A stretch of DNA of 64,000 bases, from contig CAJWGN010000001.1 in the NCBI GenBank assembly GCA_913031035.1, forward strand, positions 2,923 through 66,922, in the 5' to 3' direction. How positions within the stretch are numbered: the stretch's first letter is position 1; each line of letters opens with the position of its first letter. Made by a program: the position numbers and the translations under genes. This document shows positions 46,325 to 61,701 of this stretch, in pieces. Origin of the DNA: an uncultured Gammaproteobacteria bacterium (GTDB lineage: Bacteria > Pseudomonadota > Gammaproteobacteria > Pseudomonadales > Pseudohongiellaceae). The notes beneath the pieces are model-generated. The model saw nothing but the letters and a program-made list of their open reading frames with translations, searched no databases and had not been told where the DNA came from.

Positions 46325-47728
46325 ATGATTATTAAGTGTAAACACCAATTTCTCTCGATAAGCTGTCTTTTAGCTACCCTGTTTTGTGGTAACGCTTTTG
46401 GGCAAGAAGAAGGTCGGGCGGAGGATGAAAGCGAATCTAAAAGTGAATCTGAAAGTATCGAACGGCCATTTAGACTGTATTTTATTGATAAGCCAATTGA
46501 AATTGATTCTAGCACTGATGACCGAGCTGTCTGGCCTATAACCAAAGCGGAAGTCATTTCCGAAGATGACCCTCAATTTATTCGGCGTATGGGCAGTATT
46601 CGTGAGTACACGGAGTCGGTTCAAGCAATAGAGTCAGAGGGGGGAGTCTGGGACAGGGGCCTAATCGAAGGTCTGGCAACCTTAGGGGAGCTCCAACAGC
46701 GTCAAGGCGACCATATTACAGCTATAAAGACTTTTGACCGGGTTGTTCACGTAAGCCGAATCAACAATGGGCTGCATACACTAGAGCAGATTCCTGCCTT
46801 AGAGCAGAAAATTGAAAGTTTTCTGGTATTGGGTGATTGGGAACAAGCGGACCTTTATTACAATTATATGTTTTACATCCAGCAAAAAGCCTATGGCAAC
46901 ACTGATCCTCGGATCATTCCAATGCTTGAGCGCTTGGCTCGCTGGAATCTCCGGGCTTTTAATATAGGTTTAGGGAAAAACCTAGGTGAGCGGCTTAACT
47001 CAGCTCAACTTTTATTTGATGCCGCTTCAAAAATGGTTGATGTCCATTTTGGCCGCTCTGATAAGCGCTACGTTGACTACCAACAAAGCATTGCAAACGC
47101 TTCTTATCTGGTGAGTCAGCACCCTGAGCTAATGAACGAAATGGAGAGGCCGGAGTTTCGTCTCAACCAAGACCAACTGCGGCGACGGTTGATAAGCTCT
47201 GAGCGATCGGCATCTCGAGGCTTTCAAGCAGGCGAGGAGGCACTTCTGAATATCCTCGCTCAACGACAAGTCGAAGATGGGCTATCGGTGCCTTTGGCCG
47301 AAGCGAATGCTAATTTAGGCGACTGGTATCTGATGTTTGGTCGGCGCAAAGCTGCTGTGCAGCAGTACGCTAGTGCTTGGCAGATTATTGCTGACTTGGA
47401 GGACCATCCGGAGCTTTTAGCAGAATTTTTTGGTCACGTAGTACCTCTGCCTTCTTTTCTCGACGCCCCCACCAGTTTAGTTTTTGCATCGGAGAAAGGA
47501 AAAGACACCAAGGAACTTGAAGTGGGTTTTGTGGATCTACGTTTTGATGTAACCGAAAACGGCGTTGTCCGAAATTTAGAAATAGTGAGTGGTGAAAGTG
47601 AAGAGAAAGCACTTATTTTGGGGAGACTGCAGCGGCAGGTTAGAAGTTCAGTGTTCCGGCCTATGCTTGAAGATGGGATTGCTATTAGGTCGATTGGCAA
47701 TCAGTTTCGATACCGGTATTGGTACTAA
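46325..47728 (+). CDS. Secreted TPR-like helical-repeat protein with a C-terminal TonB_C-like domain
   Basis: Has the signal peptide MIIKCKHQFLSISCLLATLFCGNAFG|Q and a helical-repeat middle region. The C-terminus VGFVDLRFDVTENGVVRNLEIVSGESEEKALILGRLQRQVRSSVFRPMLEDG follows the TonB C-terminal pattern (G.V.v.F.v...G.v.n..v.....). Confidence 0.5.
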   Translation: MIIKCKHQFLSISCLLATLFCGNAFGQEEGRAEDESESKSESESIERPFRLYFIDKPIEIDSSTDDRAVWPITKAEVISEDDPQFIRRMGSIREYTESVQAIESEGGVWDRGLIEGLATLGELQQRQGDHITAIKTFDRVVHVSRINNGLHTLEQIPALEQKIESFLVLGDWEQADLYYNYMFYIQQKAYGNTDPRIIPMLERLARWNLRAFNIGLGKNLGERLNSAQLLFDAASKMVDVHFGRSDKRYVDYQQSIANASYLVSQHPELMNEMERPEFRLNQDQLRRRLISSERSASRGFQAGEEALLNILAQRQVEDGLSVPLAEANANLGDWYLMFGRRKAAVQQYASAWQIIADLEDHPELLAEFFGHVVPLPSFLDAPTSLVFASEKGKDTKELEVGFVDLRFDVTENGVVRNLEIVSGESEEKALILGRLQRQVRSSVFRPMLEDGIAIRSIGNQFRYRYWY

Positions 47729-47947
47729 TGCACTGATATAAGGGTTAGCATTAATTGTTGTTTTTTATTCTGTTAAGACCCTGTTCAGCAGAGTTTTGAA
47801 ATACTGCAACGTGTAATCTGGCTACTATTTGCCAGTGCAATCTACTCGAAAATTATAGGTCGCTGTTCTCGTCAGATAGAGGCGTCCAAAATCATAAAAC
47901 GCTAATCAACTCTATGGGTTGTTAGTGCAGGCTTGGCGAAATAAATT

Positions 47948-49081
47948 ATGCAAAAATTAACGAATCAAATTCCACGTTTGGCCTTGTTAGCCGGCTTAAG
48001 TCTTGCGATTGTTGGTTGCCAGTCGAGCCAAAGCTCTAGCAGCTCTCCTCCTCCGCCTAGTCCGAGTTCCAGCTCGCCCTCAAGCCCGAGCCAATCGTCC
48101 CAATCTAGTAGCCAGAGTCAGTCTCAGAGTCAGTCGCAAAGCCAGAGTAGCTCTTCAGGATCTGCCGCCCAAACCCAAGGGGCAGGTCAGTCAGGCAGTT
48201 CGCAGGCGCAGGGCCAAGCTGGCACCTCTCAAGGGAGTGCGGGTGCGGGCAATACTTCTCCTGGTCAAAGTCAGGCTAATACCGCTGGCGCAGGTCAAGC
48301 CTCGGGTTCGTCTAGCTCTGGCGGGGGCGGTCAACAGCGAACCGTATCTTTCCCTCCGAGTATTGAAGGGTCTGGAGATACTCAAGGACAGGGTTCTGAG
48401 CAAGGGTCTCCAGAGGGCCAATCCGGGTCGAGCACAACGTCTGGTCAGGGTGCTGGTGGAGAATCACGTTTTCCAGGTGAGCAGGGCGGCTCAGGACAAG
48501 GACGAGATAGTTCGACTGGGGATTTAGGCAATGGACAAGGTGCCAGCAGTAGCGGTTCTGCTGGCAATTCAGGTCTTGGTAGGCCCCCTGGTGGGGATTA
48601 TAGTTTAGAAACCCTCCCAGAAGGCGTTGCAGGTGGCACAAGTGCCTCGGGAGGCAGTGGTGCTCTAACCAACGCTGAAAGAATTCAAGTTCTTGATGAG
48701 AGGCTTAGAAAAGGCTATGAAACCTTCGATGGCTATATTCTAAGTGAGCGTGAACGTGCTCAAAATGAAAGTAATGCTGCAGGTAGTTCAGCCCCAGGTG
48801 GTTCGGCAGGAGGAGGTGCTACAGGCGGCGCTCAAGGCCAGCCGCAAACACTTCCAGCAGAGGGTGAGACACCGAGTTCGGTGGCGACTTCGCAGAGACC
48901 AAACGCCAGCCAAGCTCCACCGGAAACGTTCCCAGCGCCAGATGACATTCCCAGTGGCAGAGATGATGATGTCGTTGCGAGGCAAATTCGCGAATTGGCT
49001 ATGAGCGAACCAGACCCGGAGTTGCGTGAAGCGATTTGGGATGAATATAGAAAATATACAGGTACTGGTGAAGGACAATGA
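47948..49081 (+). CDS. Lipoprotein with ~300 aa of S/G/Q/A low-complexity region and a small acidic helical C-terminal domain
   Basis: Has the lipobox LAIVG|C at residues ~19-24. The low-complexity region includes (SQ)6 encoded at 48107-48151. The C-terminus reads DDIPSGRDDDVVARQIRELAMSEPDPELREAIWDEYRKY. The stop overlaps the next start (ATGA). Confidence 0.6.
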   Translation: MQKLTNQIPRLALLAGLSLAIVGCQSSQSSSSSPPPPSPSSSSPSSPSQSSQSSSQSQSQSQSQSQSSSSGSAAQTQGAGQSGSSQAQGQAGTSQGSAGAGNTSPGQSQANTAGAGQASGSSSSGGGGQQRTVSFPPSIEGSGDTQGQGSEQGSPEGQSGSSTTSGQGAGGESRFPGEQGGSGQGRDSSTGDLGNGQGASSSGSAGNSGLGRPPGGDYSLETLPEGVAGGTSASGGSGALTNAERIQVLDERLRKGYETFDGYILSERERAQNESNAAGSSAPGGSAGGGATGGAQGQPQTLPAEGETPSSVATSQRPNASQAPPETFPAPDDIPSGRDDDVVARQIRELAMSEPDPELREAIWDEYRKYTGTGEGQ

Positions 49082-50262
49082 GAATTATGCTTAGAAATCT
49101 AACCACCCTTGTAACGGCCGCATTATTTTTAGTTTCTTGTGCAACACATACAGTTAAGTCGACTAGTTATACCCCGATTGTGCGGGATTCCCAAGATACG
49201 CCAGAATACTTACTGCTGGATGTTGGAGTAGCAGTCTTTGATCCTGGTTTAGATGAGATTAAAAAGAGCGAAGAAGACGTAACTAATCATGAAATTCGTG
49301 TAGCGGAGTCCCGCTATGCGCCGTTTTTACTTTCCGAAACACTTCAGCGATCCGCCAATTGGGGTATTGTGCGAGTCATGCCAAACCAAGAGAGCCCAAT
49401 GGATGTCTCCCTCAAAGGGACAATTCTCAGCTCCAATGGCGAGCAAATGGCGATTCGGATCGAAGTATCCGATTCCACCGGGCGGCAGTGGTATACAAAA
49501 GAGTATAAAGAAGAGGTTAGCAAATTCAGTTACGAGCCCAGTGAGCGCCAAAAAAATGATCCGTTCCAAGTTGTTTACAACACTATCGCGAACGATCTAC
49601 TCGAATACCGTAAGCGCAATTTAAAGAACGACGAGCTTACCGAAATCCGCACAGTGTCCGAAATGCTATTCGCCCAGAGATTCTCTCCTGATGTTTTTGG
49701 CCAGTACCTCATAAAAGATCAAAATGGAAACTTGCAAGTAGTTAGTTTGCCAGCGGAATCGGACCCACTCTTAGAAAGAGTGAGAGGAATTCGCGAACGT
49801 GATTTTATGTTTATTGATACCGTGCAGGATTACTACGCGACATACGTAAGACAAATGCGCTTACCTTATGATTCATGGCGTCAACAAAGCTATGAAGAAA
49901 CCATTGAAGTACGTGATTTGAAAAACTCTGCCCGGCGTCGATTTATTGCTGGTACGGCAGTTGTACTTGGCGGTTTAGCGGCGGCCTCTAGTGGCGGGAA
50001 TTACGCGACACAAACAGGTGGTGCTGTCGGGGTTGGAGCTGGCGCGGTTCTTATAAAAAGTGGATTCGATAAGCGGGCAGAAGCAAAAATTCACATGGAC
50101 GCTTTAGAAGAACTCGGTCAATCACTTGAAAATGAAGTCGCCCCAAGGGTTCTGGATTTAGATAATCGCAGTATTACATTAACCGGTTCCGTTGAAGAAC
50201 AATACGCGCAATGGAAAGAAGTGTTAGCAGATCTCTACGCAGCAGAAGTCGGCGGACCTTAG
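49078..50262 (+). CDS. Lipoprotein with a C-terminal Gly-zipper/hydrophobic segment
   Basis: Has the lipobox LFLVS|C and a later segment FIAGTAVVLGGLAAASSGGNYATQTGGAVGVGAGAVLI. An SD GAAGGA lies upstream. Confidence 0.6.
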   Translation: MRIMLRNLTTLVTAALFLVSCATHTVKSTSYTPIVRDSQDTPEYLLLDVGVAVFDPGLDEIKKSEEDVTNHEIRVAESRYAPFLLSETLQRSANWGIVRVMPNQESPMDVSLKGTILSSNGEQMAIRIEVSDSTGRQWYTKEYKEEVSKFSYEPSERQKNDPFQVVYNTIANDLLEYRKRNLKNDELTEIRTVSEMLFAQRFSPDVFGQYLIKDQNGNLQVVSLPAESDPLLERVRGIRERDFMFIDTVQDYYATYVRQMRLPYDSWRQQSYEETIEVRDLKNSARRRFIAGTAVVLGGLAAASSGGNYATQTGGAVGVGAGAVLIKSGFDKRAEAKIHMDALEELGQSLENEVAPRVLDLDNRSITLTGSVEEQYAQWKEVLADLYAAEVGGP

Positions 50263-50303: not shown

Positions 50304-51830
50304 ATGTCTGATAAAAGAAGCGAAAGTGCTGACCTCGATCACGTCGATGACAATGCAGTATTTAAAACGGCTAGCCCTCAAGCTCAAATTGATAAGCCTC
50401 CAATAATTCTATGGCTTGGATTAGGTGGTTTATTGCTAGTGGCGTTATTGGTAGTTTTTGTCCTGCCAGTGCTGGTTACTGAATATGAGTTACCTTTAGA
50501 AAGGCGTGTTGATATTGCCGAGCTTGTGCCTTCACCAGCTTCCCAGCGAGAATTAGAAATATCCCCGTTTGAAGAAGCGCAGCGCTCTATTCAGAGAAAA
50601 AACGCACAAGACGTACTAGCCGAATTGCTGGAAATTCAAGGCGAGCTATCAGCCTTAGACGTTGTTGAATGGGGACAGCGTCAATTTGAAGAAGCGCTGT
50701 CTCAAGCAAGCACTGGCGATGAATATTATCGAAGCCAAGAATTTTTATTGGCAGTAGAAGTTTATGGGCTTGGGCGCGATACATTAGCGCAACTCAGAGA
50801 CTCTGTGCCAACGGTTATAGCTCAAACACTCATAGAAGCCGAGACTGCCTTCATAGCCGGTGATGCGTTGGTTGCAGAAGAAAAATATGCTTTGGCATTG
50901 CTTCTAGACGCATTTGATGAAGCTGCCCTAATTGGTTTAGAGCGCTCAAGAACATTAAGTGAGGTAGTTGATCTTTTAAACCAAACTGATGATCTGATCG
51001 AAGATGGCGGCCTCGAGCAAGCAAGAAACCTACTTGATCGCGTTATTAGTTTGGATGGTCGCAATTTAATTGCGCCGGCTAAAAAAACTGAAGTAGTCGC
51101 AATGATCCGCGAGCGAGAATTTTCTTCGATCATGTCTGCTGGTTATACAGCTTTAGAAACCGGCGACCCAGATGCAGCAATCACACAATTCGAAAATGCT
51201 GCGAACATGGGAATTAATCAAAACCAGGCGCTGGCGGCAATAACTCAAGCCGAAAATGAAATTGCAAACGCAGAAATAAATGTTCTTAGGCAGGCGATCG
51301 ACTCCGCCGAAAATGCCGAGCAATGGCAAGACGCCGTTGATAGCTATGACAAGGTTTTAATAATCGATTCAAATTTATCATTCGCAATTAATGGCAAGGA
51401 TTATGCTACTAAACGAGAAAGACTAAATTCCTTGTTGGTTGCAGCAAACAGTAATCCTCAGCGGCTTGCCGAAGATGACGTCTACCAGCAAACTATCGAT
51501 GTTTATTACACAGGCCGGGCTATCGATGAGCCAAGCTCAGTTTTGTCCACTCAACTCGATCTATTGGAAGGATATTTAGAAAACTCTCAGATACCAATTA
51601 ACGTCCAATTTATATCTGACAATTTGACCGATGTAACACTTCTTAGAATTGAACACGTCGGACTTTTTGAGCAGCAGAAAATGTCACTCAAGCCAGGTAA
51701 CTACGTAGCCGTTGGAAAGCGGTCCGGATACAGAGAGGTTAGAAAGGAATTTGTCGTGGGATTTGATCAAACTCCAAGCTTAGTCATAGTGCAATGTGAC
51801 GAGCCTATAGCTCCCAGCAATAGGCGATAA
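50304..51830 (+). CDS. Single-pass membrane protein with a periplasmic TPR-like region and a PEGA-like C-terminal beta domain
   Basis: Has the TM segment IILWLGLGGLLLVALLVVFVLPVLV after an acidic N-terminus. A long alanine/glutamate-rich helical-repeat region follows. The C-terminus reads LKPGNYVAVGKRSGYREVRKEFVVG. Confidence 0.55.
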   Translation: MSDKRSESADLDHVDDNAVFKTASPQAQIDKPPIILWLGLGGLLLVALLVVFVLPVLVTEYELPLERRVDIAELVPSPASQRELEISPFEEAQRSIQRKNAQDVLAELLEIQGELSALDVVEWGQRQFEEALSQASTGDEYYRSQEFLLAVEVYGLGRDTLAQLRDSVPTVIAQTLIEAETAFIAGDALVAEEKYALALLLDAFDEAALIGLERSRTLSEVVDLLNQTDDLIEDGGLEQARNLLDRVISLDGRNLIAPAKKTEVVAMIREREFSSIMSAGYTALETGDPDAAITQFENAANMGINQNQALAAITQAENEIANAEINVLRQAIDSAENAEQWQDAVDSYDKVLIIDSNLSFAINGKDYATKRERLNSLLVAANSNPQRLAEDDVYQQTIDVYYTGRAIDEPSSVLSTQLDLLEGYLENSQIPINVQFISDNLTDVTLLRIEHVGLFEQQKMSLKPGNYVAVGKRSGYREVRKEFVVGFDQTPSLVIVQCDEPIAPSNRR

Positions 51831-51832
51831 CG

Positions 51833-53911
51833 ATGGATAACCCTAACGTTAAGAATGAGCCAAACGGCTCTAACGACCCAATAGTACCAATAGATTTTAC
51901 ACCTAATGAAAATAAGGCAGCCCGTGTTTCGTTTAAGCTGAAACCTATTCATTTTATTCTGGCCGCATTTTTCAGTATTTCAGGGTTTGCCGCTTGGTTT
52001 GTATTGACGGCGAAATCTGTTTCCATCGAAGCGAATCCAGTTACCGCTGTAGTTGAAATTAGCGGTGGCTTAAAATTCAAGTTGGGGCCACGTTATTTAA
52101 TTCGCTCAGGCCGCTACGATATTAAATTAGTAAACGAGGGTTATCACGATAGCGAATCTATATTGGTGGTTAGTTCAGATCAGACTCAGACCCACCTTTA
52201 TGAAATGCAGAAGCTTCCGGGGATCTTAAGTTTCGCTACTAAGGATCTAATCGCCGCTAGGGTGCAAGTCGATGGCATAGACCTCGGTGAGACGCCATTA
52301 ATGTCTATATTGGTTGAGGCCGGCGAGAGGCAGCTAACCGTATCAAAGGACCGTTACCTAGACTTTGCGCAGACAATCTTAGTGGAGGGGCGGTCGGTAG
52401 AGCAAAGCTTCGAGGCTCAATTAGAGCCTGCCTGGGCAACCGTCAGCTTGACGACAAGTCCTGCTGGAGCCGACGTCATAGTGGATGGCGAACTTATTGG
52501 TACTACTCCTATGAATGCGAAAATCATTCAAGGCCAGCGCGACCTCACCCTGAAGCTCGCAGGGCATAAGGCATGGCAAGAAGATTTTGGTATTTTTGCG
52601 GGAGAAGATTTTGTTATTCCTGATATAGAATTGGAGCCGGCAGATGGACTAGTCTTCATTCAGTCCTCACCATCGTCAGCCTCGGTGACTATAGGAGGAG
52701 AGTTTAAGGGTTTAACGCCACTTGAGGTTTCCTTGGCTCCGGACATTGATCACGAAATCACCTTTTTTAAAAATGGATACAACTCAAGTAAACGCAGCAT
52801 TAGAACTCAGGCCAATCAAGAAAGTGGGGTCAGTGTTAGCTTGGATCCTGTGCTGGCTAATGTTCAGGTAATTAGTCAGCCTGAAGATGCGCAGCTTTAT
52901 GTTAATGGAGAGCTTCGTGGTCTCGCAAATCAAACGCTTGAGCTAATAGCAGCAAGTCAACAAATCGAAGTACGTAAGGCAGGCTATGTCCCTTTTACAG
53001 CGGAATTCACCTCAAGACCTGGCCTGGATCAGGTAATCCGAGTCAGTCTTAAGTCTCTAGAGCAGGCCCGACTTGACCAGATCGAACCGGTTATTAGTAA
53101 CGCTGCTGGTCAGTCGCTTAAACTTTTCTATCCATCCGCTTTTACAATGGGGGCATCTCGCCGTGAAGCCGGTCGCAGGTCAAATGAAAACCTGCGAGAG
53201 ATAAAGTTGGAACGACCATTTTATATAAGCTATAAAGAAGTGACCAACGCTGAATTCAGACTGTTCGATAGCGAGCATTCCTCTGGTATTTTACAGGGTT
53301 TGAGCTTAAACAATGAGGCTCAGCCCGTGGTTAGACTCAGTTGGACACAGGCCGCGCTTTTCTCTAACTGGCTCAGCGAGCAAGAGTCTATTGAGCCTTT
53401 TTACGATGTTTTAGACGGCGACGTTGTTGGTTATAACTCAGAATCTACCGGTTACAGGATGCCCTCTGAAGCTGAATGGGCATGGGCCGCAAGGGCTGAT
53501 GGTAGCGGAAATCTCTTGAAATATCCGTGGGGCACACAGCTGCCTCCGCCAGACAACGCTGGAAACTTTGCAGATATTACGGCGAGAAATTATCTGGGAG
53601 AGGTCATGTTTGATTACGAAGATGGCTATTTGGCAACGGCTCCGGTGGCATCCTTTACTGCTAACCAAAATGATCTGTTTGACATGGCAGGTAATGTTTC
53701 GGAATGGGTTCATGACTACTACGGTTCAGTTGGATCAGCCAATGGCGCTGAAGTTGACCCGCTGGGTTCTGTAAACGGTCAGTTTCACACAATTCGCGGC
53801 TCTAGCTGGGCTCATGGTTCTGTTTCTGAGATACGGCTATCGTTTAGAGATTTCGGTGAAGAGCCACGAGACGATGTTGGATTTAGAATCGCTAGGTATT
53901 TAGAGGAGTGA
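51833..53911 (+). CDS. Membrane-anchored protein with 5 PEGA-like repeats and a C-terminal FGE-sulfatase (SUMF1/PvdO-like) domain lacking the catalytic cysteines
   Basis: Has the TM segment IHFILAAFFSISGFAAWFVLTA and PEGA-type repeats (VDGIDLGETPL, VDGELIGTTPM, IGGEFKGLTPL, VNGELRGLANQ ...). FGE-fold blocks are PVVRLSWTQAALFSNWLS, GYRMPSEAEWAWAAR, GNVSEWVHDYY, IRGSSWAH and VGFRIARY. Confidence 0.8.
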   Translation: MDNPNVKNEPNGSNDPIVPIDFTPNENKAARVSFKLKPIHFILAAFFSISGFAAWFVLTAKSVSIEANPVTAVVEISGGLKFKLGPRYLIRSGRYDIKLVNEGYHDSESILVVSSDQTQTHLYEMQKLPGILSFATKDLIAARVQVDGIDLGETPLMSILVEAGERQLTVSKDRYLDFAQTILVEGRSVEQSFEAQLEPAWATVSLTTSPAGADVIVDGELIGTTPMNAKIIQGQRDLTLKLAGHKAWQEDFGIFAGEDFVIPDIELEPADGLVFIQSSPSSASVTIGGEFKGLTPLEVSLAPDIDHEITFFKNGYNSSKRSIRTQANQESGVSVSLDPVLANVQVISQPEDAQLYVNGELRGLANQTLELIAASQQIEVRKAGYVPFTAEFTSRPGLDQVIRVSLKSLEQARLDQIEPVISNAAGQSLKLFYPSAFTMGASRREAGRRSNENLREIKLERPFYISYKEVTNAEFRLFDSEHSSGILQGLSLNNEAQPVVRLSWTQAALFSNWLSEQESIEPFYDVLDGDVVGYNSESTGYRMPSEAEWAWAARADGSGNLLKYPWGTQLPPPDNAGNFADITARNYLGEVMFDYEDGYLATAPVASFTANQNDLFDMAGNVSEWVHDYYGSVGSANGAEVDPLGSVNGQFHTIRGSSWAHGSVSEIRLSFRDFGEEPRDDVGFRIARYLEE

Positions 53912-54180
53912 TGATGAGAAATTTAACTCACGTTTACGCGGTTTTGCTTGTATTGGCTAGCGCGAATGTAATGGCACAAGATCAGACTCCAAATGAGCCT
54001 AGTGTAATAGATTTTGAGGAGCCTGAAGTGTCAAGTGAGCTAGTGCTAGATGAAGAGCCAGCCACCGAAAACGGCTCAATAGAATCACAGCAAGAAGATG
54101 ACGCACAAGCATCTCAAAGGTTTATCCCGACCGAAGAGATATCACAGGATTTAGGTGTTTCTTTTCCTGCAAACATATAA
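53911..54180 (+). CDS. Small secreted acidic protein (~89 aa)
   Basis: Has the signal peptide MMRNLTHVYAVLLVLASANVMA|Q and a mature part rich in E/D. The start overlaps or abuts the upstream TGA (GTG 53908, ATG 53911 or ATG 53914), with AGGAG at 53902-53906. Confidence 0.5.
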   Translation: MMRNLTHVYAVLLVLASANVMAQDQTPNEPSVIDFEEPEVSSELVLDEEPATENGSIESQQEDDAQASQRFIPTEEISQDLGVSFPANI

Positions 54181-54241
54181 CGATTTTGGGATTTTTTGCC
54201 ACGCTAAAAAAAGCGGCTTATAAACGAGAAAAGGATTGAGT

Positions 54242-55048
54242 ATGAAGCAAGGTTTGTTGTCTGAAGCTATGTGGCAGTTAGTGCCTCTTATTGTTGCGCT
54301 AATCGTCGTACATGCGGCTTATGTGACAGTGATTCGACCTACCGCAGAGGCTGTTCAGGAGCAGCAGAGCTTCCTGCAGGAATCCAATCCAGATTTTGTT
54401 CCAGAACGGTCCGTCTATATTATTTTGAAAGACCTTGAGCAAGAGACCTGCATAATATTATTTCTGTGGGCCTCGGCTCTTATAGGCATGAAAACTCAGC
54501 AGACCATTAGGCAACGTGCACTACTTGATCAAACTCTTATTCAATTGTCTGATGGTATGAGTATTCTACCAGAAGACGCAAGAAACTACGCTCGACCAGT
54601 TCAGGCCCTAGGTGAGCGTGAAAAGCAATATTTGCTCCCACGGGCTCTGTTGGCAGGTCTGCAGCGCTTTCAAAGTACGCGCAACATTCAGGACGTATCA
54701 ACTATTGTAAAAGATACCTGCGAGTCTGAAGCTGATCGCATGGAAACAGAATTGTCTATCGTGCGCTACATAGCTTGGGCAATCCCCTCCATAGGTTTCT
54801 TGGGAACGGTTCGCGGTATCGGAACAGCTCTAGGGCAAGCTTATCAAGCAGTTGCCGGTGATATTGTAGGGGTGACAGTGAGTCTTGGGGTTGCCTTTAA
54901 TTCAACCTTTGTAGCCTTGGTTGTTAGCATTTTGTTGACCTTCGTTTTGTACCAGCTGCAATTGCTTCAGGACCGGCTCGTATTGGACTGCCAGCACTAC
55001 TGCGATGAGAAGCTAATTAGCAACCTACAGGTTCCGGACAGAGCATAG
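54242..55048 (+). CDS. MotA/TolQ/ExbB-family proton channel protein (4-TM topology)
   Basis: The C-terminal block VRYIAWAIPSIGFLGTVRGIGTALGQAY...VSLGVAFNSTFVALVVSILLTFVLYQL matches the MotA_ExbB signature (aP.lGLLGTV.G...aF ... AL.tT..GL.vA). Two additional N-terminal TM segments are present. ATG 54242 is preceded by AAGGA. Confidence 0.8.
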   Translation: MKQGLLSEAMWQLVPLIVALIVVHAAYVTVIRPTAEAVQEQQSFLQESNPDFVPERSVYIILKDLEQETCIILFLWASALIGMKTQQTIRQRALLDQTLIQLSDGMSILPEDARNYARPVQALGEREKQYLLPRALLAGLQRFQSTRNIQDVSTIVKDTCESEADRMETELSIVRYIAWAIPSIGFLGTVRGIGTALGQAYQAVAGDIVGVTVSLGVAFNSTFVALVVSILLTFVLYQLQLLQDRLVLDCQHYCDEKLISNLQVPDRA

Positions 55049-55050
55049 CC

Positions 55051-56409
55051 ATGAGTTTAAAAATAATAGAACTTAACGACGCAGGGATAAAAGTTGGGGA
55101 CCATGGTGGCATCGTCGCTCATAGTCCTGGTTTTGCTCTGGTGGTTGGTAGCGAGCTTTTATTGGGTGAGCGTGCAGAGAAGCAAGCGCGCTTACAGCCG
55201 ACTAAAAGCTATAATAAATACTGGTATGAACTCAGTATGGAACCCTTAAATCACGGCAATCATCTCAGGCATACAGCGGATATAGCGTTTGCCCATCTTT
55301 TGCATCTCGCCGAAATAGGAGAAATTGAGTCTGATGTTCTTCTTGCCGTACCGGGAAGTTTTAGTTCTCAGCAGCTAGCGATACTTTTGGGGTTAGCGAA
55401 GCAAAGCCCTATCAATCCGATAGGCGTAGTCGACTCAGGTCTTGTTGCTGGGATTGCCGCTGGGATTTGTGAATCCTCTTTATTTATCGACTTGCAACTC
55501 CATCAGATTGTTGTAACCAAACTTAACTTCAGCAATGGCCTTTTAACCTCTGAATCAGTTGTTCAAATCCCAGGTGTGGGCAGTCAGAATTTCATTAATT
55601 TGATGATGCAGAAAGCTACCGACTCCTTTATTGAACAATGCCGTTTTAATCCTCAGCATAATGCTGAGTATGAGCAGCTTCTCTATAGCCAGTTGCCGCT
55701 TTGGCTCAGCCAATACGATGATTCTCAGACTAATTTAATGTTGGAGCTCAAAACTAGTGATGCCTTGCACGTTGCGAAAATGCCTAAGGAAGGTCTTATC
55801 GCTAGTTTGCAAAGTCACTATAAGAAAATCAACCAAGAGCTTGAACCCTTGCTTAGCGATCAATACTCTACTCTTATTCTTAATAAAGGCTTGGCATCAT
55901 TGCCCGGCTATATGGCTAGTTTACCTGAGTTCAAATCCATCAAAGTTTTGCAAGGCCATGAGATAATTGAAGCCTGCCTGGACCATGTAGATAGAATAGT
56001 GACGCCGGGAGAGGAAATTCATTTAGTAAGATCTCTTCCTGTTGCCGGCGGATCGAATTCAACCGGTGCTCATGGACAAATTGAATTAGACGGCGGTGAG
56101 GCACCTACCCATCTCGTTTATCGTAGCAGAGCTGTGGCGCTTGGGGATATTCAAATTCGTAATCCTGACAATGAAAAAGACGGCTCAGGGACCAGCTCCA
56201 AAACAATCAATATCTCAGCGGGCGATTTGCCGACCTTGCTTGGAGAGACTCATGTTAATAGCTCAGGCGCTTTTATTGAGAGCGGTGAACTTGAGTTTTA
56301 TTTGAATTCAAAACCGGTAAAAGGGCTACAGAAAATTTCTCTCGGCGACCAGATTCAATTCGGCATACAAGGTGATGTATTGACCGCAATTCAGGTGCAA
56401 AATGTCTAG
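55051..56409 (+). CDS. Cytoplasmic Hsp70/actin-fold (ASKHA-like) protein with degenerate nucleotide-binding motifs and a C-terminal FHA-like beta region
   Basis: There is no signal peptide or TM segment. [42 protein letters not shown] parallels Hsp70 [51 protein letters not shown] and [16 protein letters not shown] sit where GIDLGTT and DLGGGTFDVS are expected. Confidence 0.45.
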   Translation: [452 protein letters not shown]

Positions 56410-57499
56410 AAAGTCGAGACGTAGAATATCCACTCCCTTGAGCCTTGCCTTCTTGGATGTGATGTTTTGCGGCTTTGGTGCGGTAATTCTAATTTTCCTT
56501 ATTATGGATCACTCGAGTATCACCGCCAAAAACGATGCTAATCCGAGTTTGGCAGCCGAAATTAATCTTCTAGAGGAAGAAGTGTTAGAAGGAGAGCTTG
56601 GCTTGGTGAGAGTGCGTAATACGCTTTCTGATACTTCCTTCGAAGTTGTTGAAGCTCAGGGTCTCGCGCGACAGGTTCAAGATCAAATTGACACCTTTCT
56701 ACAAGAGCTGGCATCGATGGAAAACTCCAGTATCGCCAGTGTCGAGAGTATTGAAAAACTACGGTCGGACATTAAGGCCCTTGAAGAAGAACTATTGAGA
56801 CTGCAGGCTAGCGCTTTTGAGCAAGAAGGTAATAATGTTAGGCAGTACATTGGTGACGGTAATCGACAATATTTGTCTGGGTTCTTCTTAGGAGGGCAGC
56901 GGATTCTAATTTTGGTAGACAGCTCCACTAGTATGCTGGATAGCACGCTAATTAACATTATCAGAACTCGAAACTTGTCAGATGAGCGGAAAAGGCAGGC
57001 GCCAAAGTGGCGTCGTGTAGTCAAAACTATCGATTGGATAAGCACTCAGCTGCCTGTAACCAGCCGCTATCAAATTTGGTCCTTTAGCAACAGCTACACA
57101 AGTGCCATCCCGGGAAGCGAAGCGCGGTGGTTGGAAGTGGCTGACCGAGATCAGTTAAACCAAGCAATTATCAATATTGGCGATACGATCCCCAACAATG
57201 GCACAAATATGGAACAGGTATTTCGCGGGGTCGCCAATATGAATCCGCCCCCGGACAATATATTTCTTATAACCGACGGTCTACCAACGCTAGACGATCG
57301 TGGTGATCCTAATGGGCTGGTTACTCCGAATCAGCGTGCAGAGCTGTTTGAAAATGCTGTCACTGAGTTACCTAGAGGAATACCGGTAAATGTTATTCTA
57401 ATGCCTCTGGAAGGTGATCCTTCTGCCTCTGCAGTGTTTTGGGAACTGGCTCAGGTTTCGAAAGGGTCCTATTTGACCCCTTCTAAAGATTGGCCTTAG
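56402..57499 (+). CDS. TolR/ExbD-like TM anchor - coiled coil - periplasmic vWA (MIDAS) domain protein, paralogue 1
   Basis: The N-terminus MSRKSRRRISTPLSLAFLDVMFCGFGAVILIFLIM resembles TolR ..NIVPLLDVLLVLLLIFM, with the conserved Asp. A heptad-rich ~100 aa follows. vWA motifs are ILILVDSSTSM (DxSxS) and IFLITDGLPT. It overlaps the upstream gene by 8 nt. Confidence 0.7.
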   Translation: MSRKSRRRISTPLSLAFLDVMFCGFGAVILIFLIMDHSSITAKNDANPSLAAEINLLEEEVLEGELGLVRVRNTLSDTSFEVVEAQGLARQVQDQIDTFLQELASMENSSIASVESIEKLRSDIKALEEELLRLQASAFEQEGNNVRQYIGDGNRQYLSGFFLGGQRILILVDSSTSMLDSTLINIIRTRNLSDERKRQAPKWRRVVKTIDWISTQLPVTSRYQIWSFSNSYTSAIPGSEARWLEVADRDQLNQAIINIGDTIPNNGTNMEQVFRGVANMNPPPDNIFLITDGLPTLDDRGDPNGLVTPNQRAELFENAVTELPRGIPVNVILMPLEGDPSASAVFWELAQVSKGSYLTPSKDWP

Positions 57500-57597: not shown

Positions 57598-58602
57598 ATG
57601 AGACGTAGAGACCGCGAATCTGATTCCTTTACGGTGTCTTTTTTGGACGTGGCGTCCTGTGGTTTCGGGGCGATGATAATCTTGTTGATAATCACCAAGA
57701 TTAATGACCCAGTGACTTTGGAAATAGTCGATGTCCCGCCGGAGGGCAGAGTTATCGAACTGCAAGAATCTTTGTTTGCGATTCGGGGCGAAACCACAAT
57801 ACTGAATCGTGAACTCAACGCAAAGCATGAGCAACTGTCTGCACTCACCGATAGAGTCGCACGGCTACGCCGAGATCTAAATGACATCGAGGGGCGTTAT
57901 CAGACAACAACTGAGCTGTCCGACGAAACCACCGATGAAGCCGGCAAGCTGGCGATTGCTCAGCAATCCTTAACTGACGAAATGCAGCGCCTGCTGGCAA
58001 ATAGCCCAGCAGCAGAGAACAACGCCGTTGGCGGTGTGCCTGTGGATAGCGAATATATTATTTTTATTATCGATACATCAGGCAGTATGTTTAATAATCC
58101 TAGTTGGAATAAAATGCTGGGTGTGATCGACAATACTCTTGATGTATATCCCGAAGTTAAGGGGATTCAGATAATGAACGATATGGGAGACTATATGTTC
58201 AATTCCTACGCTGGCAAGTGGATGCCAGATACGCCTTCCACCCGAAGCCGAATTATCTCCACGCTTCGGAATTGGCAACCTTACAGTAATAGCAGCCCTG
58301 TAGAAGGTGTAACCCGGGCTATCAATACATTCTATTCCCCCGATAAGAAAATCAGCATTTACGTCCTTGGAGACGATTTTCAGCCAGGGGGCTCTATTCG
58401 CAATGTGCTTCAAACCATAGATAGAATCAATGTAGAAGACGCCAATGGGAATAGGCTAGTCAGAATTCATGGGATTGGTTTCCCGGTCATTTTCGACTTT
58501 CCGCAGCGCTTCAGACAGAGTGTTTATCGCTATGCCACGTTAATGCGCGAGATGACGTCACGAAATGGTGGTACATTTGTAGGTCTCAACGACTTCAGAT
58601 AG
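57598..58602 (+). CDS. TolR/ExbD-like TM anchor - coiled coil - periplasmic vWA (MIDAS) domain protein, paralogue 2
   Basis: The N-terminus MRRRDRESDSFTVSFLDVASCGFGAMIILLIIT is followed by a coiled-coil-like segment. vWA motifs are IIFIIDTSGSM (DxSxS) and ...LMREMTSRNGGTFVGL. An SD GAGGAG lies upstream. Confidence 0.7.
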   Translation: MRRRDRESDSFTVSFLDVASCGFGAMIILLIITKINDPVTLEIVDVPPEGRVIELQESLFAIRGETTILNRELNAKHEQLSALTDRVARLRRDLNDIEGRYQTTTELSDETTDEAGKLAIAQQSLTDEMQRLLANSPAAENNAVGGVPVDSEYIIFIIDTSGSMFNNPSWNKMLGVIDNTLDVYPEVKGIQIMNDMGDYMFNSYAGKWMPDTPSTRSRIISTLRNWQPYSNSSPVEGVTRAINTFYSPDKKISIYVLGDDFQPGGSIRNVLQTIDRINVEDANGNRLVRIHGIGFPVIFDFPQRFRQSVYRYATLMREMTSRNGGTFVGLNDFR

Positions 58603-58665: not shown

Positions 58666-59274
58666 ATGAATAAACACTTAAGTAAAATCGTTCTAGTACC
58701 CATGATCGTTCTTTTTCTAGGGAACTGTGGTGTAAATAACGTGGTGATAGAAGGGCAGTTTCCTACGCCCAATATTAGCAAAATGCCTGTCTATGTAGCG
58801 GTGATCTACGACCAAGCTTTGAGGGATTTTTCTTACCTTGAATACACTGAAACAGGATCCGAAGAATTTAATATCCAAAGCGGTGCCTCTCACGTGGAGT
58901 TGTTTAATTCGATAACACCGGCGATGTTTGAGCAGGTAATTTTTGTCGACACCTTAGAAGAAGCTCAAATCGCTGGAGTCGATGCAATATTCGCCCCTGC
59001 TATTGAGGAGTTTCAACTGGCGCTGCCAGCGAAAACAAAGCTGGACGTCTATGAAGTGTGGATAAAATATAATATGCGACTTCTCACCGCTCAAGGAGAC
59101 TACATCGCTGACTGGGTTTTGACGTCCTACGGCAAGACACCAACCGAATCATTTCAAACGGTAGAAGGGGCAATTAATGATGCGGCTGTGATCGCCTTAA
59201 GAGACCTTGCCTCCAGCTTTTCGCTAAGTTTTAGCGATGTACCTGAAGTCCGAGATTGGCTGGATCAGCAATAA
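58666..59274 (+). CDS. Lipoprotein, unknown family (202 aa)
   Basis: Has the lipobox LFLGN|C and an SD AAAGGA upstream. Confidence 0.6.
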   Translation: MNKHLSKIVLVPMIVLFLGNCGVNNVVIEGQFPTPNISKMPVYVAVIYDQALRDFSYLEYTETGSEEFNIQSGASHVELFNSITPAMFEQVIFVDTLEEAQIAGVDAIFAPAIEEFQLALPAKTKLDVYEVWIKYNMRLLTAQGDYIADWVLTSYGKTPTESFQTVEGAINDAAVIALRDLASSFSLSFSDVPEVRDWLDQQ

Positions 59275-59302
59275 AGCTGATAACCAGTTAAGAGAGTCAA
59301 AA

Positions 59303-59980
59303 ATGAATCCTAATCCTATTTTTAAAGAAGGCCGCTTCAAATTTTTGTTGTTGATGGCGTTAAGCTTTGTAGTTTCTTGCACTAGCACTACAGTTGATGA
59401 GTTTAGGCAGGGTGAAACTGGAATCAGCGATGATGAAACCGTCGTTGTTCTTGGCCGACGTCAAGCCAGCGACTATGAAACGAGGTCAGAGTTTATTGAA
59501 TGCGTGGGCGATAAAATGGCTCGGGGGGACAACGCGCTCAATATTATTCCTGAACAAGAGTTTATAGATGCTATGTTTCCCTGGTTTGAGCCTCGCACTG
59601 CGCCACTCAGAACTCAAGACTTAGCTAAGCTAATGTCAGAAGATGTGGTGGCAGATAAAATGGGTGAATTTGGCATTCGTTATATTGTCTGGGTCGATGG
59701 TTTTACTGAGACATCAGGAAGAACGGGATCAATATCTTGTACTGTTGGGCCAGGCGGAGCTGGATGCTTTGGCTTTGGTACTTGGGAAGACGATGCCAAT
59801 TTTGACGCTAGAATATGGGACGTTGGCTCATTCACCAATGTTGGGACCATCAATACCGATGCGTCGGGCCAATCATATTTGCCGGCATTGGTTATTCCAA
59901 TACCTCTAATTGCTCGAGTGGAAGCGAACGCTTGTTCGCGGCTGGCAGATCAGCTTAAAGGATTTGTTAATGGCAGCTAG
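59303..59980 (+). CDS. Lipoprotein, unknown family (225 aa)
   Basis: Has the lipobox SFVVS|C after MNPNPIFKEGRFKFLLLMAL. The start was chosen at ATG 59303; the track ORF begins at 59237 inside the upstream gene. Confidence 0.6.
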   Translation: MNPNPIFKEGRFKFLLLMALSFVVSCTSTTVDEFRQGETGISDDETVVVLGRRQASDYETRSEFIECVGDKMARGDNALNIIPEQEFIDAMFPWFEPRTAPLRTQDLAKLMSEDVVADKMGEFGIRYIVWVDGFTETSGRTGSISCTVGPGGAGCFGFGTWEDDANFDARIWDVGSFTNVGTINTDASGQSYLPALVIPIPLIARVEANACSRLADQLKGFVNGS

Positions 59981-60013: not shown

Positions 60014-61528
60014 ATGACTAGTTTGTATAACTTAATTTCACATATCATCACGCCGTACGCTTTAGTAAATCAGCTTCCTAGAAGACTTCTTTTGTGTGCT
60101 CTATTTTCCTCGATGGTGCTGTCTTGTTCAGTAAACCCAGCAACCGGAGGCGCTAATTTAGTATTAATGACTGAGAAAAAAGAAAAAAGAATCGGTCAGG
60201 AGGAACATGAAAAAGTACTCGCTAGCATGCCGTTATTTGAGGATGAGGAATTACTAATATATGTACGTATGGTCGGAAACAAAGTGGCTAATGTTAGCCA
60301 TCGACCTAATCTAGAATATACATTCAATATAATTGATAGTCCTGAAATCAATGCTTTCGCCTTACCTGGCGGATATGTCTATGTAAACCGCGGCCTACTT
60401 ACTTTCATGAACACAGAAGCTGATTTAGCAGCTGTACTTGCTCACGAGATTGGTCATATCACGGCACGCCATGGCGTGCAACAGCAAGCAAGAGGAACGC
60501 TGGCAAGAACAGCAGCTCAAGTAGGTGGGGTGGTGACAGCTGTAGCTACTGGAAGTGGGTATGTTGGCTCGCAAATCAGTGAAGTTGCTTCCATATGGGC
60601 ACAAACAGGATTGAGTGGGTTTGGTAGGGAGCATGAACTCGAAGCAGATAGTCTAGGTGCAGAATATATCAAAGAGGCTGGGTACGATCCCGCTGCTATG
60701 ATTAATGTTGTCACCGTTTTAAAAAATCAGGAAGATTTTAGCAAACGCGTCAATAATGGAGGTGGGGGCTACCATGGATTATTTGCTACCCATCCCCGTA
60801 ATGATACTCGATTACAAGAAGCCATCGCGGCGGTTGCCAGTTTAGATAATGATGAAATTCGAAAATTAGACAATACTGAATTTAGAGAAAATATAAACGG
60901 GTTGATAATTGGCGCTAGCCAAGCTTCCCAAACGCAAGATGCGCGAAATCGATACTATCAAGCACTGTTGGGTTATACATTGTTATTTCCTGATGATTGG
61001 CAGGTTTCAGAGACTACCACTACAGTGATCGCGAGCAATGAAAGTGTCGGCAATATGAAGATTGAAACCCAGCGCCTTCAGGATAACGTAGACCCACGTG
61101 TCTTTTTAAGAGATACGGTTGGTATTAGTAACCTACAAAAATCTGAATCGTTAGTTCAATACCGACTTCAAGGACATACAGGAACAAACCTTTTGGAAAA
61201 TGGAAACACCGAAAGAGTCGCGGTGATTTACTTAGGTCCTCGTGCTTTCGTTTTTCGAGGTGAAATTACTGACCAATCATCAAGCGACGAAATTGACGAT
61301 CTCCTGCTTTCTACAATCAGGACATTTAGATCAATTCAGAGAGGTGAAGTCGTAGCAGGGACAGAGTTAAAACTAAAATATGTTCAAGCGAGCGAGTTCT
61401 TTGACTTTGCTGTAGTGGCTCAAAGTAGCAAAATAGCGAACTATCCGGAAGAAACTCTACGGCTCTTAAATGGCTACTATCCTGCCGGCAGCCCGGAAGA
61501 AGGTGAGTGGATCAAGTTGATAGAGTAG
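60014..61528 (+). CDS. M48 family zinc metallopeptidase lipoprotein with a C-terminal domain of unknown function
   Basis: Has the lipobox SMVLS|C. It also has INAFALPGGYVYVNRGLL, the HEXXH motif LAHEIGHITARH and a downstream E (GREHELEAD). Confidence 0.85.
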   Translation: MTSLYNLISHIITPYALVNQLPRRLLLCALFSSMVLSCSVNPATGGANLVLMTEKKEKRIGQEEHEKVLASMPLFEDEELLIYVRMVGNKVANVSHRPNLEYTFNIIDSPEINAFALPGGYVYVNRGLLTFMNTEADLAAVLAHEIGHITARHGVQQQARGTLARTAAQVGGVVTAVATGSGYVGSQISEVASIWAQTGLSGFGREHELEADSLGAEYIKEAGYDPAAMINVVTVLKNQEDFSKRVNNGGGGYHGLFATHPRNDTRLQEAIAAVASLDNDEIRKLDNTEFRENINGLIIGASQASQTQDARNRYYQALLGYTLLFPDDWQVSETTTTVIASNESVGNMKIETQRLQDNVDPRVFLRDTVGISNLQKSESLVQYRLQGHTGTNLLENGNTERVAVIYLGPRAFVFRGEITDQSSSDEIDDLLLSTIRTFRSIQRGEVVAGTELKLKYVQASEFFDFAVVAQSSKIANYPEETLRLLNGYYPAGSPEEGEWIKLIE

Positions 61529-61701
61529 ATAAAGTGGATAGCTAAGCCAGGTTACTCACCGCTATCGACACTCCCGTCCTTCCAATTAAAGACTATATTG
61601 TCCTAAATCTTTGTTTTTACTCATCGCAAGGTTAAACTGGATGCTTCATTTTGCAGCGTCTATGGACTCCTATTTAGGCGTTCTTTATAGGAAACAGATC
61701 G

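Follow-up and report, generated by a model that had tools for sequence, protein, structure and literature searches.

A protein combining an Hsp70-like domain of non-canonical cleft with a degenerate FHA domain, encoded between TolQ-like and vWA genes in a Pseudohongiellaceae bacterium

We analysed a 64,000-nucleotide stretch of DNA (the window; positions 2,923 to 66,922 of contig CAJWGN010000001.1, assembly GCA_913031035.1) from an uncultured gammaproteobacterium of the family Pseudohongiellaceae, and in it a gene whose product unites an Hsp70-like nucleotide-binding domain (NBD) with an FHA domain. This Hsp70-like-FHA protein is the product of a gene that lies between a MotA/TolQ/ExbB-like proton-channel gene and a gene for a vWA protein in all loci examined. 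The Hsp70 cleft motifs are replaced by other, nearly invariant residues, and canonical FHA domains in the family go together with a Ser/Thr kinase gene upstream, both of which the window lineage lacks. The reading that we favour, and regard as reasonably probable, is that of a cytoplasmic protein that does not hydrolyse ATP, serves the TolQ-like/vWA motor as adaptor or regulator and was formerly under phospho-control. The gene and its parts are as follows.

55051..56409, + strand: Hsp70-like-FHA gene (open reading frame (ORF), 452 aa including the ATG start at 55051)
55051..56046, + strand (residues 1-332): Hsp70-NBD-like (ASKHA) domain with a non-canonical cleft (AlphaFold2 model, Foldseek, hhalign, residue frequencies)
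56047..56094, + strand (residues 333-348): disordered linker between the domains (pLDDT <50; gap-rich and of variable length in alignments)
56095..56409, + strand (residues ~349-452, plus the stop codon): degenerate FHA domain without the phosphothreonine-binding Ser/Arg/His (domain model, profile, homologs)

The full-length AlphaFold2 model, built from a 44-sequence alignment, has a mean pLDDT (the per-residue model confidence) of 87 and consists of two domains joined by the linker 333-348. In a Foldseek search of the PDB all top 50 matches were Hsp70 NBDs (E 7e-16 to 1e-14; target-normalised TM-score 0.6-0.71). The same relationship emerges from hhalign, in which the family profile aligned with the NBDs of E. 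coli DnaK, HscA, HscC and YegD over residues 1-334 (probability 79%, E 1.9e-6); the local profile-profile alignment to these paralogs spans residues 14-332, and the alignment of the first 13 residues is of low confidence. The four-paralog template was required, as DnaK alone recovered a stretch of only 26 residues. VPGSF (VPGxF in the family) is paired with DnaK VPAYF, VVDSxxAA with IINEPTAAA, and IDLQLHQ with YDLGGGT. At the sequence level the Hsp70 relationship is visible solely by profile-profile alignment. Pfam, NCBIfam and PADLOC gave no match for the window protein, neither it nor 44 family members matched the Hsp70 family model (PF00012) in Pfam and NCBIfam, and PDB sequence and profile searches with the full-length protein returned nothing meaningful. 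The substrate-binding beta-sandwich and helical lid of Hsp70 are absent, and an FHA fold forms the C-terminal domain instead. A special affinity to YegD was considered and rejected, since YegD scored worse than HscC and HscA. At the E. coli K-12 locus (L088; NC_000913 2147674-2153128) yegD adjoins yegI (Ser/Thr kinase), pphC (PP2C phosphatase) and yegL (vWA), which is another grouping of an Hsp70-like gene with kinase and vWA genes.

The family is large, and it is without a family model or name. Close homologs number 435, all annotated "hypothetical" and found in marine Gammaproteobacteria such as Pseudohongiellaceae. A profile search against 1.84 billion cluster representatives (clusters at 50% identity) matched 1,630 clusters with E<=1e-3, of which 820 reach E<=1e-30, and almost all family matches are full-length (400-520 aa). 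A search that started from the distant member P0214 uncovered a sister subfamily, with at least 1,350 proteins annotated only as "FHA domain-containing" or "hypothetical". The scan of the genome collection returned only close relatives, i.e. Pseudohongiellaceae and other Pseudomonadales; distant loci were obtained from searches for contigs encoding homologs and from a metagenome scan.

The alignment to DnaK allows the cleft to be read position by position. Within the low-confidence N-terminus E7-L-N9-D10 was placed on DnaK D8-L-G10-T11, because the five N-terminal strands of the model match the DnaK order one to one. The correspondences are listed with the DnaK residue first.

D8: E7
G10-T11: N9-D10
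K70 region: deleted
N170-E171: D128-S129
D194: D147 (retained)
G196-G197-G198-T199: Q149-L150-H151-Q152
G341-G342 (GG of the adenosine motif): not conserved

The phosphate-1 (DxGTT) and phosphate-2 (DxGGGT) motifs of Hsp70 thus read ELND and DLQLHQ, and on this alignment the canonical Hsp70 catalytic set is absent from the N-terminal domain. The residues found in its place are strongly retained among 139 representatives of 50%-identity clusters: D10 in 99%, H151 and D128 in 96% each, L150 in 95%, E7 and N9 in 88% each, with D or E at position 147 in 98%. W58, D77, R198 and Q209 occur in 100% of these representatives and E208 in 99%; R198, E208 and Q209 belong to the helices of subdomain IIB. 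The replacement residues E7, N9, D10, D128, D147, L150 and H151 stay near-invariant down to ~26% identity. Judged from residue frequencies, the Hsp70 cleft motifs did not simply decay; a new constellation under strong selection has taken their place. The non-canonical cleft is identical in the window subfamily and in the sister subfamily. It is thus the same in kinase-bearing and kinase-less systems, and its role would therefore be independent of phosphorylation.

An earlier note on this DNA, made by eye from the letters alone, had proposed that the layout of the protein mirrors the ASKHA motifs of Hsp70; hhalign arrives at the same alignment. An ASKHA fold had been posed in advance as a test, and model and Foldseek give the fold of an Hsp70 NBD. 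That the canonical phosphate-binding and catalytic residues are missing was also borne out by the profile-profile alignment. Where the note spoke of "degenerate" ATP-binding motifs, the loss of the canonical residues stands, and the implied decay does not, the replacements being near-invariant across the family.

The last ~90 residues had been likened in the same note to the tail of an FHA domain, and here too the later evidence agrees. A separate model of residues 346-452 of the window protein reached a pLDDT of 92, and the top 50 Foldseek matches to the C-terminal model were all FHA domains (TM-score 0.55-0.67; KIF1A at 5.8e-4, YscD, MxiG, GarA and Rv0020c). The profile of this domain matches FHA domains in the PDB (KIF13B at 5.9e-7; also Ki-67, CHFR, Rad53, EssC and Rv0020c). 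Pfam FHA (PF00498) does not match the window sequence alone; it or Yop-YscD_cpl is matched by 7-8 of 44 distant full-length homologs (best E 4.8e-14). At the SRxH loop, where sister proteins read SRRHCS, the window protein has PTLLGE, with Pro for Ser and Leu for His, and the S-T-x-G-T (STYGT) loop is missing. None of 120 close relatives and nine of the 139 cluster representatives carry the canonical SRxH/GTxLN signature; H354, A361, N419, G432 and D433 are still conserved. By predicted fold and by profile the C-terminus is a genuine FHA domain, in which the phosphothreonine-binding residues have been lost.

The gene is tightly linked to its neighbours on both sides. Upstream, the TAG stop of the MotA/ExbB-like ORF (55046-55048) and the ATG at 55051 are separated by the 2-nt gap CC. 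Downstream, the two ORFs overlap by 8 nt, the start of the next one lying at 56402 inside ...ATGTCTAG. Gap and overlap, both reported in the earlier note, can be read directly from the sequence, and all peptide strings quoted there are present in the translation of ORF 55051-56409. Its statement that the product lacks an export signal also holds: a Kyte-Doolittle scan of the 452-aa protein found no hydrophobic segment, hence neither an export signal nor a transmembrane (TM) helix. The upstream gene had been given a start at 54242, which is indeed an in-frame ATG; the listed ORF begins two codons earlier, with TTG at 54236. Tight translational coupling is general across related loci and not specific to the window, as the stop codon overlaps the start of the first vWA gene in 69 of 84 related loci and the gap from the MotA-like stop is <=4 nt in 58 of 84. 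In each of the 85 related loci that gave tblastn hits, the MotA/TolQ-like gene stands directly 5' of the Hsp70-like-FHA gene. In every locus examined, including relatives of 26-34% identity with unrelated flanks, the latter is bordered by MotA_ExbB on one side and by the first vWA gene on the other. This conserved gene coupling supports membership of the Hsp70-like-FHA protein in the machine encoded around it.

A link to phosphorylation comes from the sister subfamily, in which all but two of the best-scoring 120 proteins listed have an FHA domain detectable by Pfam. On two long sister contigs the gene at the position of the window's TM-TPR gene encodes a fusion of Ser/Thr kinase, TM helix and TPR domain (747-790 aa; Pfam Pkinase 6.9e-30 for the protein of locus L090). 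Residues 35-502 of the window TM-TPR protein align to residues 320-790 of the L090 protein (E 8e-50), and the window protein therefore lacks only the ~310-aa cytoplasmic kinase domain; a 34-aa tail is left before its TM helix. No Ser/Thr kinase is encoded in the window cluster. Both features were tallied in those fetched loci whose upstream sequence extends over at least 6.3 kb.

Canonical FHA, kinase upstream: 28 loci
Canonical FHA, no kinase upstream: 0 loci
Degenerate FHA, no kinase upstream: 74 loci
Degenerate FHA, kinase match upstream: 1 locus (L086)

The kinase match at L086 is a pseudokinase, with HGD for HRD, GLG for DFG and a Pkinase score below the cut-off (4.3e-5). Both HRDxK and DFG are kept in 24 of the 33 kinase ORFs. 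A distant kinase-less locus (L173) is a further case with a degenerate FHA domain. The graded series from active kinase through pseudokinase to no kinase argues for an FHA domain that reads the kinase of its own cluster and for a joint loss of the two in the window lineage. This co-variation of kinase and FHA is a new finding.

The other genes of the cluster, all on the + strand, are listed below with the evidence for each assignment.

46325..50262, +: three genes for exported proteins that open the cluster (translations; homologs at the same position in the distant locus L086), namely the next three entries
46325-47728, +: signal-peptide TPR protein, first gene of the cluster
47948-49081, +: Ser/Gly/Gln-rich lipoprotein
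49078-50262, +: lipoprotein
50304..51830, +: TM-TPR protein, kinase-less ortholog of the Ser/Thr-kinase-TM-TPR fusion (508 aa; alignment to the L090 protein)
51833..53911, +: bitopic protein carrying four PEGA repeats and a GldK-like FGE-sulfatase domain (PEGA 3e-43, FGE-sulfatase 1.8e-36)
53908..54180, +: small acidic protein of 90 aa with an N-terminal signal-like hydrophobic segment (translation)
54236..55048, +: MotA/TolQ/ExbB-like proton-channel subunit, presumed to form a pentameric motor (Pfam MotA_ExbB 9.9e-15)
56402..57499, +: vWA protein 1 with short basic tail, TolR/ExbD-like transpore helix, coiled coil and periplasmic vWA domain (Pfam VWA_2 1.2e-5)
57598..58602, +: vWA protein 2, paralogous partner with the same N-terminal helix, VSFLDVASCGFGAM (translation, conserved N-terminus)
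58666..59980, +: two lipoprotein genes that close the cluster (lipobox-like N-termini)

The conserved order is secreted TPR protein, two lipoproteins, TM-TPR, PEGA plus FGE-sulfatase, small secreted protein, TolQ-like, Hsp70-like-FHA, vWA-1, vWA-2 and two lipoproteins. The PEGA plus FGE-sulfatase gene and the vWA-2 gene are each conserved in 83 of 85 loci, and distant loci have a small ORF at the position of the 53908..54180 gene. At L086 homologs of the two tail lipoproteins have moved upstream onto the opposite strand and are still linked to the cluster. At the N-terminus of both vWA proteins a short basic tail precedes the helix (S/A)FLDVxxCGFGA, which is highly conserved. The transpore helix of vWA-1 holds a conserved Asp (SLAFLDVMFCGFGAV), and the protein fits the "TPH-vWA" family of PMC12204202. 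The cytoplasmic tails of both comprise 4-6 basic residues before the Asp-bearing helix, conserved across loci, and a metal ion-dependent adhesion site motif (DxSxS) was found by eye in each (VDSSTSM, IDTSGSM).

The system was delimited at 12 genes because the flanking genes for an M48 peptidase and a T2SSE/MshE-like ATPase (60014-63495), which are syntenic in close relatives, are absent in L086. Neither gene lies downstream of the cluster in L086, L090 or L091, and L173 has the M48 gene but not T2SSE. A hydantoinase gene upstream of the cluster is syntenic in the close relatives L001 and L002. The M48, T2SSE and hydantoinase genes probably just adjoin the system and do not belong to it. A TM segment, a signal peptide or a lipobox-like N-terminus is predicted for most of the other 11 proteins of the cluster, and the Hsp70-like-FHA protein is by prediction the only clearly cytoplasmic member of this 12-gene envelope machine.

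Several observations concern individual neighbours. The last ~65 residues of the TPR protein (46325-47728) match TonB_C weakly (E 0.0028, below the Pfam cut-off), and the protein could conceivably act as a TonB-like contact to the outer membrane. The lipoprotein 47948-49081 comprises ~300 residues of Ser/Gly/Gln-rich low complexity followed by a conserved C-terminal stretch of ~80 residues, with GC up to 0.51. The PEGA plus FGE-sulfatase protein has a partial NCBIfam match, far below the cut-off, to the type IX secretion ring lipoprotein PorK/GldK (3e-29), and the position of its gene two genes upstream of a 5:2-motor gene loosely parallels gldK-gldL of the type IX secretion/gliding machinery. 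The listed ATG of ORF 59237-59980 overlaps the preceding gene by 38 nt; the Met at ~59303 (MNPNPIF...FLLLMALSFVVSC), which gives a lipoprotein-type signal, is probably the true start. A promoter and terminator scan across the cluster found sites no more numerous than in shuffled sequence and is therefore uninformative on operon structure. Rosetta-stone fusions to neighbour genes were discarded, the only candidates being stop-poor reading frames in high-GC contigs.

Taken together, the cluster may encode a trans-envelope machine around a TolQ/MotA-like proton-driven motor, in which the two vWA proteins with their TolR-like, Asp-bearing helices would form the plug and the Hsp70-like-FHA protein would be a dedicated cytoplasmic subunit, presumably contacting the cytoplasmic face of the motor. 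The Hsp70-like domain most likely no longer hydrolyses ATP and would serve as a nucleotide-independent docking or conformational module. The earlier note had likewise suggested a non-hydrolysing scaffold or regulator, one that may bind the cytoplasmic loop of the MotA-like channel. In sister systems the membrane kinase (kinase-TM-periplasmic TPR), encoded three genes upstream of the motor gene, would sense envelope signals in the periplasm; the signal would be written as phosphothreonine, read by the canonical FHA domain, and would switch or position the motor. In the window lineage the kinase domain has been deleted and the phosphate-binding residues of the FHA domain have been lost. With both gone, the protein would have become a constitutive, phospho-independent adaptor, and its FHA domain a former phospho-reader that is now vestigial or purely structural.

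Several points weigh against this adaptor reading. Contact with the motor is itself an inference. The near-invariant E7, D10, D128, D147 and H151 could equally mean unusual binding of a ligand, a metal or a nucleotide. The clustering of conserved residues in the cleft is deduced from alignment and secondary-structure order, the first 13 residues being of low confidence. The 74 kinase-less loci belong mostly to one clade of Pseudohongiellaceae and other Pseudomonadales, so that the correlation of kinase and FHA rests on few independent, phylogenetically clustered events and is therefore a pattern, not a statistic. Finally, the Hsp70-like-FHA protein is the fastest-evolving component of the cluster. 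In a comparison that covered the loci L030, L080 and L086, it shows 49% identity between L030 and the window, as against 80% for the TolQ-like protein, 71% for one vWA protein and 78% for the other, and between L086 and the window 27% versus 59% (TolQ-like) and 41% and 49% (vWA). Fast evolution fits an adaptor and equally fits a less essential part.

One could go further than the adaptor reading and see in the protein the cytoplasmic clutch of an unrecognised class of proton-driven machines, which docks on the rotating TolQ-like pentamer and ancestrally engaged or released it as dictated by phosphothreonine marks from the periplasm-sensing kinase; we offer this as a speculation that we think rather unlikely. 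If it were true, evolution would have turned the fold of a chaperone ATPase into a mechanical or regulatory part, working without nucleotide, of a phospho-gated 5:2 motor.

Among the explanations that compete with the adaptor, an active nucleotide-dependent enzyme or chaperone deserves the most attention. In this scenario E7, D10, D128, D147 and H151 form a non-canonical metal-nucleotide site and NTP hydrolysis assembles, resets or unplugs the motor. The near-invariant polar residues do lie exactly at the equivalents of phosphate-1, connect-1 and phosphate-2, and the whole NBD architecture is kept, including the subdomain IIB helices with invariant R198, E208 and Q209. However, both glycine-rich phosphate loops and the glycines of the adenosine motif are gone, the Lys region is deleted, Glu171 and Thr199 are replaced, and no ATPase-family sequence model matches in Pfam, NCBIfam or the PDB profile search. 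We know of no characterised ASKHA ATPase without both phosphate loops, and consider this scenario improbable. Somewhat less credit still is due to an FHA domain that still recognises a phosphorylated partner by way of a non-canonical pocket, its kinase gene lying at another place in the genome. It would explain why the fold is intact and confidently predicted and why H354, A361, N419, G432 and D433 are conserved; yet Ser and His of SRxH have become Pro and Leu, the S-T-x-G-T loop is gone, the signature occurs in 0 of 120 close relatives, and it disappeared where the in-cluster kinase was deleted, a pseudokinase marking the intermediate stage. FHA-fold domains that lack these residues (YscD/MxiG, kinesin-3) are not known to bind phosphothreonine.

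An actin/MreB-like filament on which the motor runs or is anchored in the cytoplasm, in the manner of MreB and the Agl motor of Myxococcus, would account for an ASKHA fold next to a TolQ-like motor, and the Agl-Glt system provides a precedent that joins such a motor to MreB (PMC11761067). Against it stand the top 50 structural matches, all of them Hsp70 NBDs with no actin, MreB, ParM or FtsA among them. Known filament-forming ASKHA proteins bind nucleotide via the canonical motifs, which are missing here, and we regard a filament as very unlikely. A passenger gene, adjacent to the motor genes by coincidence, would sit well with the fastest rate of evolution in the cluster, but the same position and overlapping stop and start codons recur in more than 80 genomes, including relatives of 26-34% identity with different flanks. 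This conserved synteny effectively refutes the passenger explanation, to which we attach next to no credence.

Proton-driven 5:2 motors (MotAB, ExbBD, TolQR, GldLM, AglRQS, ZorAB) are central to bacterial envelope biology, and their cytoplasmic control is largely unknown outside the flagellum. With the Hsp70-like-FHA family, a motor class first proposed in 2025 gains a conserved cytoplasmic partner, and the tie to a Ser/Thr kinase in the sister lineage makes for a testable model of signal-controlled motor activity. The steps from active kinase with canonical FHA via pseudokinase with degenerate FHA to no kinase form a natural series for dissection. The protein is also a clear example of another use of the Hsp70 ATPase fold, with a cleft that is new and invariant.

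Compared with the NBDs of DnaK, Hsc70, HscA and HscC, the window domain shares the two-lobed ASKHA fold, the order of secondary structure and an alignable motif framework. In contrast to them it is ~55 residues shorter, has a trimmed subdomain IB and lacks a Pfam HSP70 match; the glycine loops and K70, E171 and T199 are replaced, and an FHA domain takes the place of the substrate-binding domain and lid. GspL (its cytoplasmic domain), PilM and FtsA are cytoplasmic actin/Hsp70-superfamily modules that dock bitopic partners and are not enzymes. The structural matches of the window domain are Hsp70 NBDs and not those families; the analogy would be a functional one only. Kinase-FHA-vWA sets, as described in outline for T6SS PpkA/Fha1, archaeal ArnA/ArnB and Deinococcus DRA0331-0334, resemble the sister systems, which combine a membrane Ser/Thr kinase, a canonical FHA domain and vWA in one operon. 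They differ, in the same outline, in that the FHA domain of sister and window systems is fused to an Hsp70-like domain and vWA to motor helices, and in that the window has no kinase. No PP2C phosphatase was seen in the loci examined. For the AglR(5)QS motor of Myxococcus gliding, a prediction places the FHA domain of GltG against the cytoplasmic side of the pentamer formed by the TolQ-like AglR (PMC11761067). This likewise associates a cytoplasmic FHA domain with a TolQ-family motor; unlike the window FHA, which sits on a soluble protein with an Hsp70-like domain, that of GltG is fused to a TolA/TonB-like TM transducer, and the likeness is one of FHA fold.

The closest counterpart is the motor class proposed in 2025 (Mol Biol Evol, PMC12204202), in its main text a TolQ-like pentamer without TolR that is plugged by paired proteins of TolR-like transpore helix and vWA domain ("TPH-vWA"). 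The window agrees with that description: it has a tolQ-like gene without tolR/exbD, and the N-terminal helices encoded by its two heterologous vWA genes bear the conserved Asp. The main text of PMC12204202 makes no mention of a gene between tolQ and vWA, nor of PEGA/FGE-sulfatase, kinase-TPR or lipoprotein genes, and our literature searches found no paper describing an Hsp70-like-FHA component or the kinase link. The Hsp70-like-FHA protein is an undescribed component of the TPH-vWA motor class, and it adds to this newly proposed class a new family and a new domain architecture.

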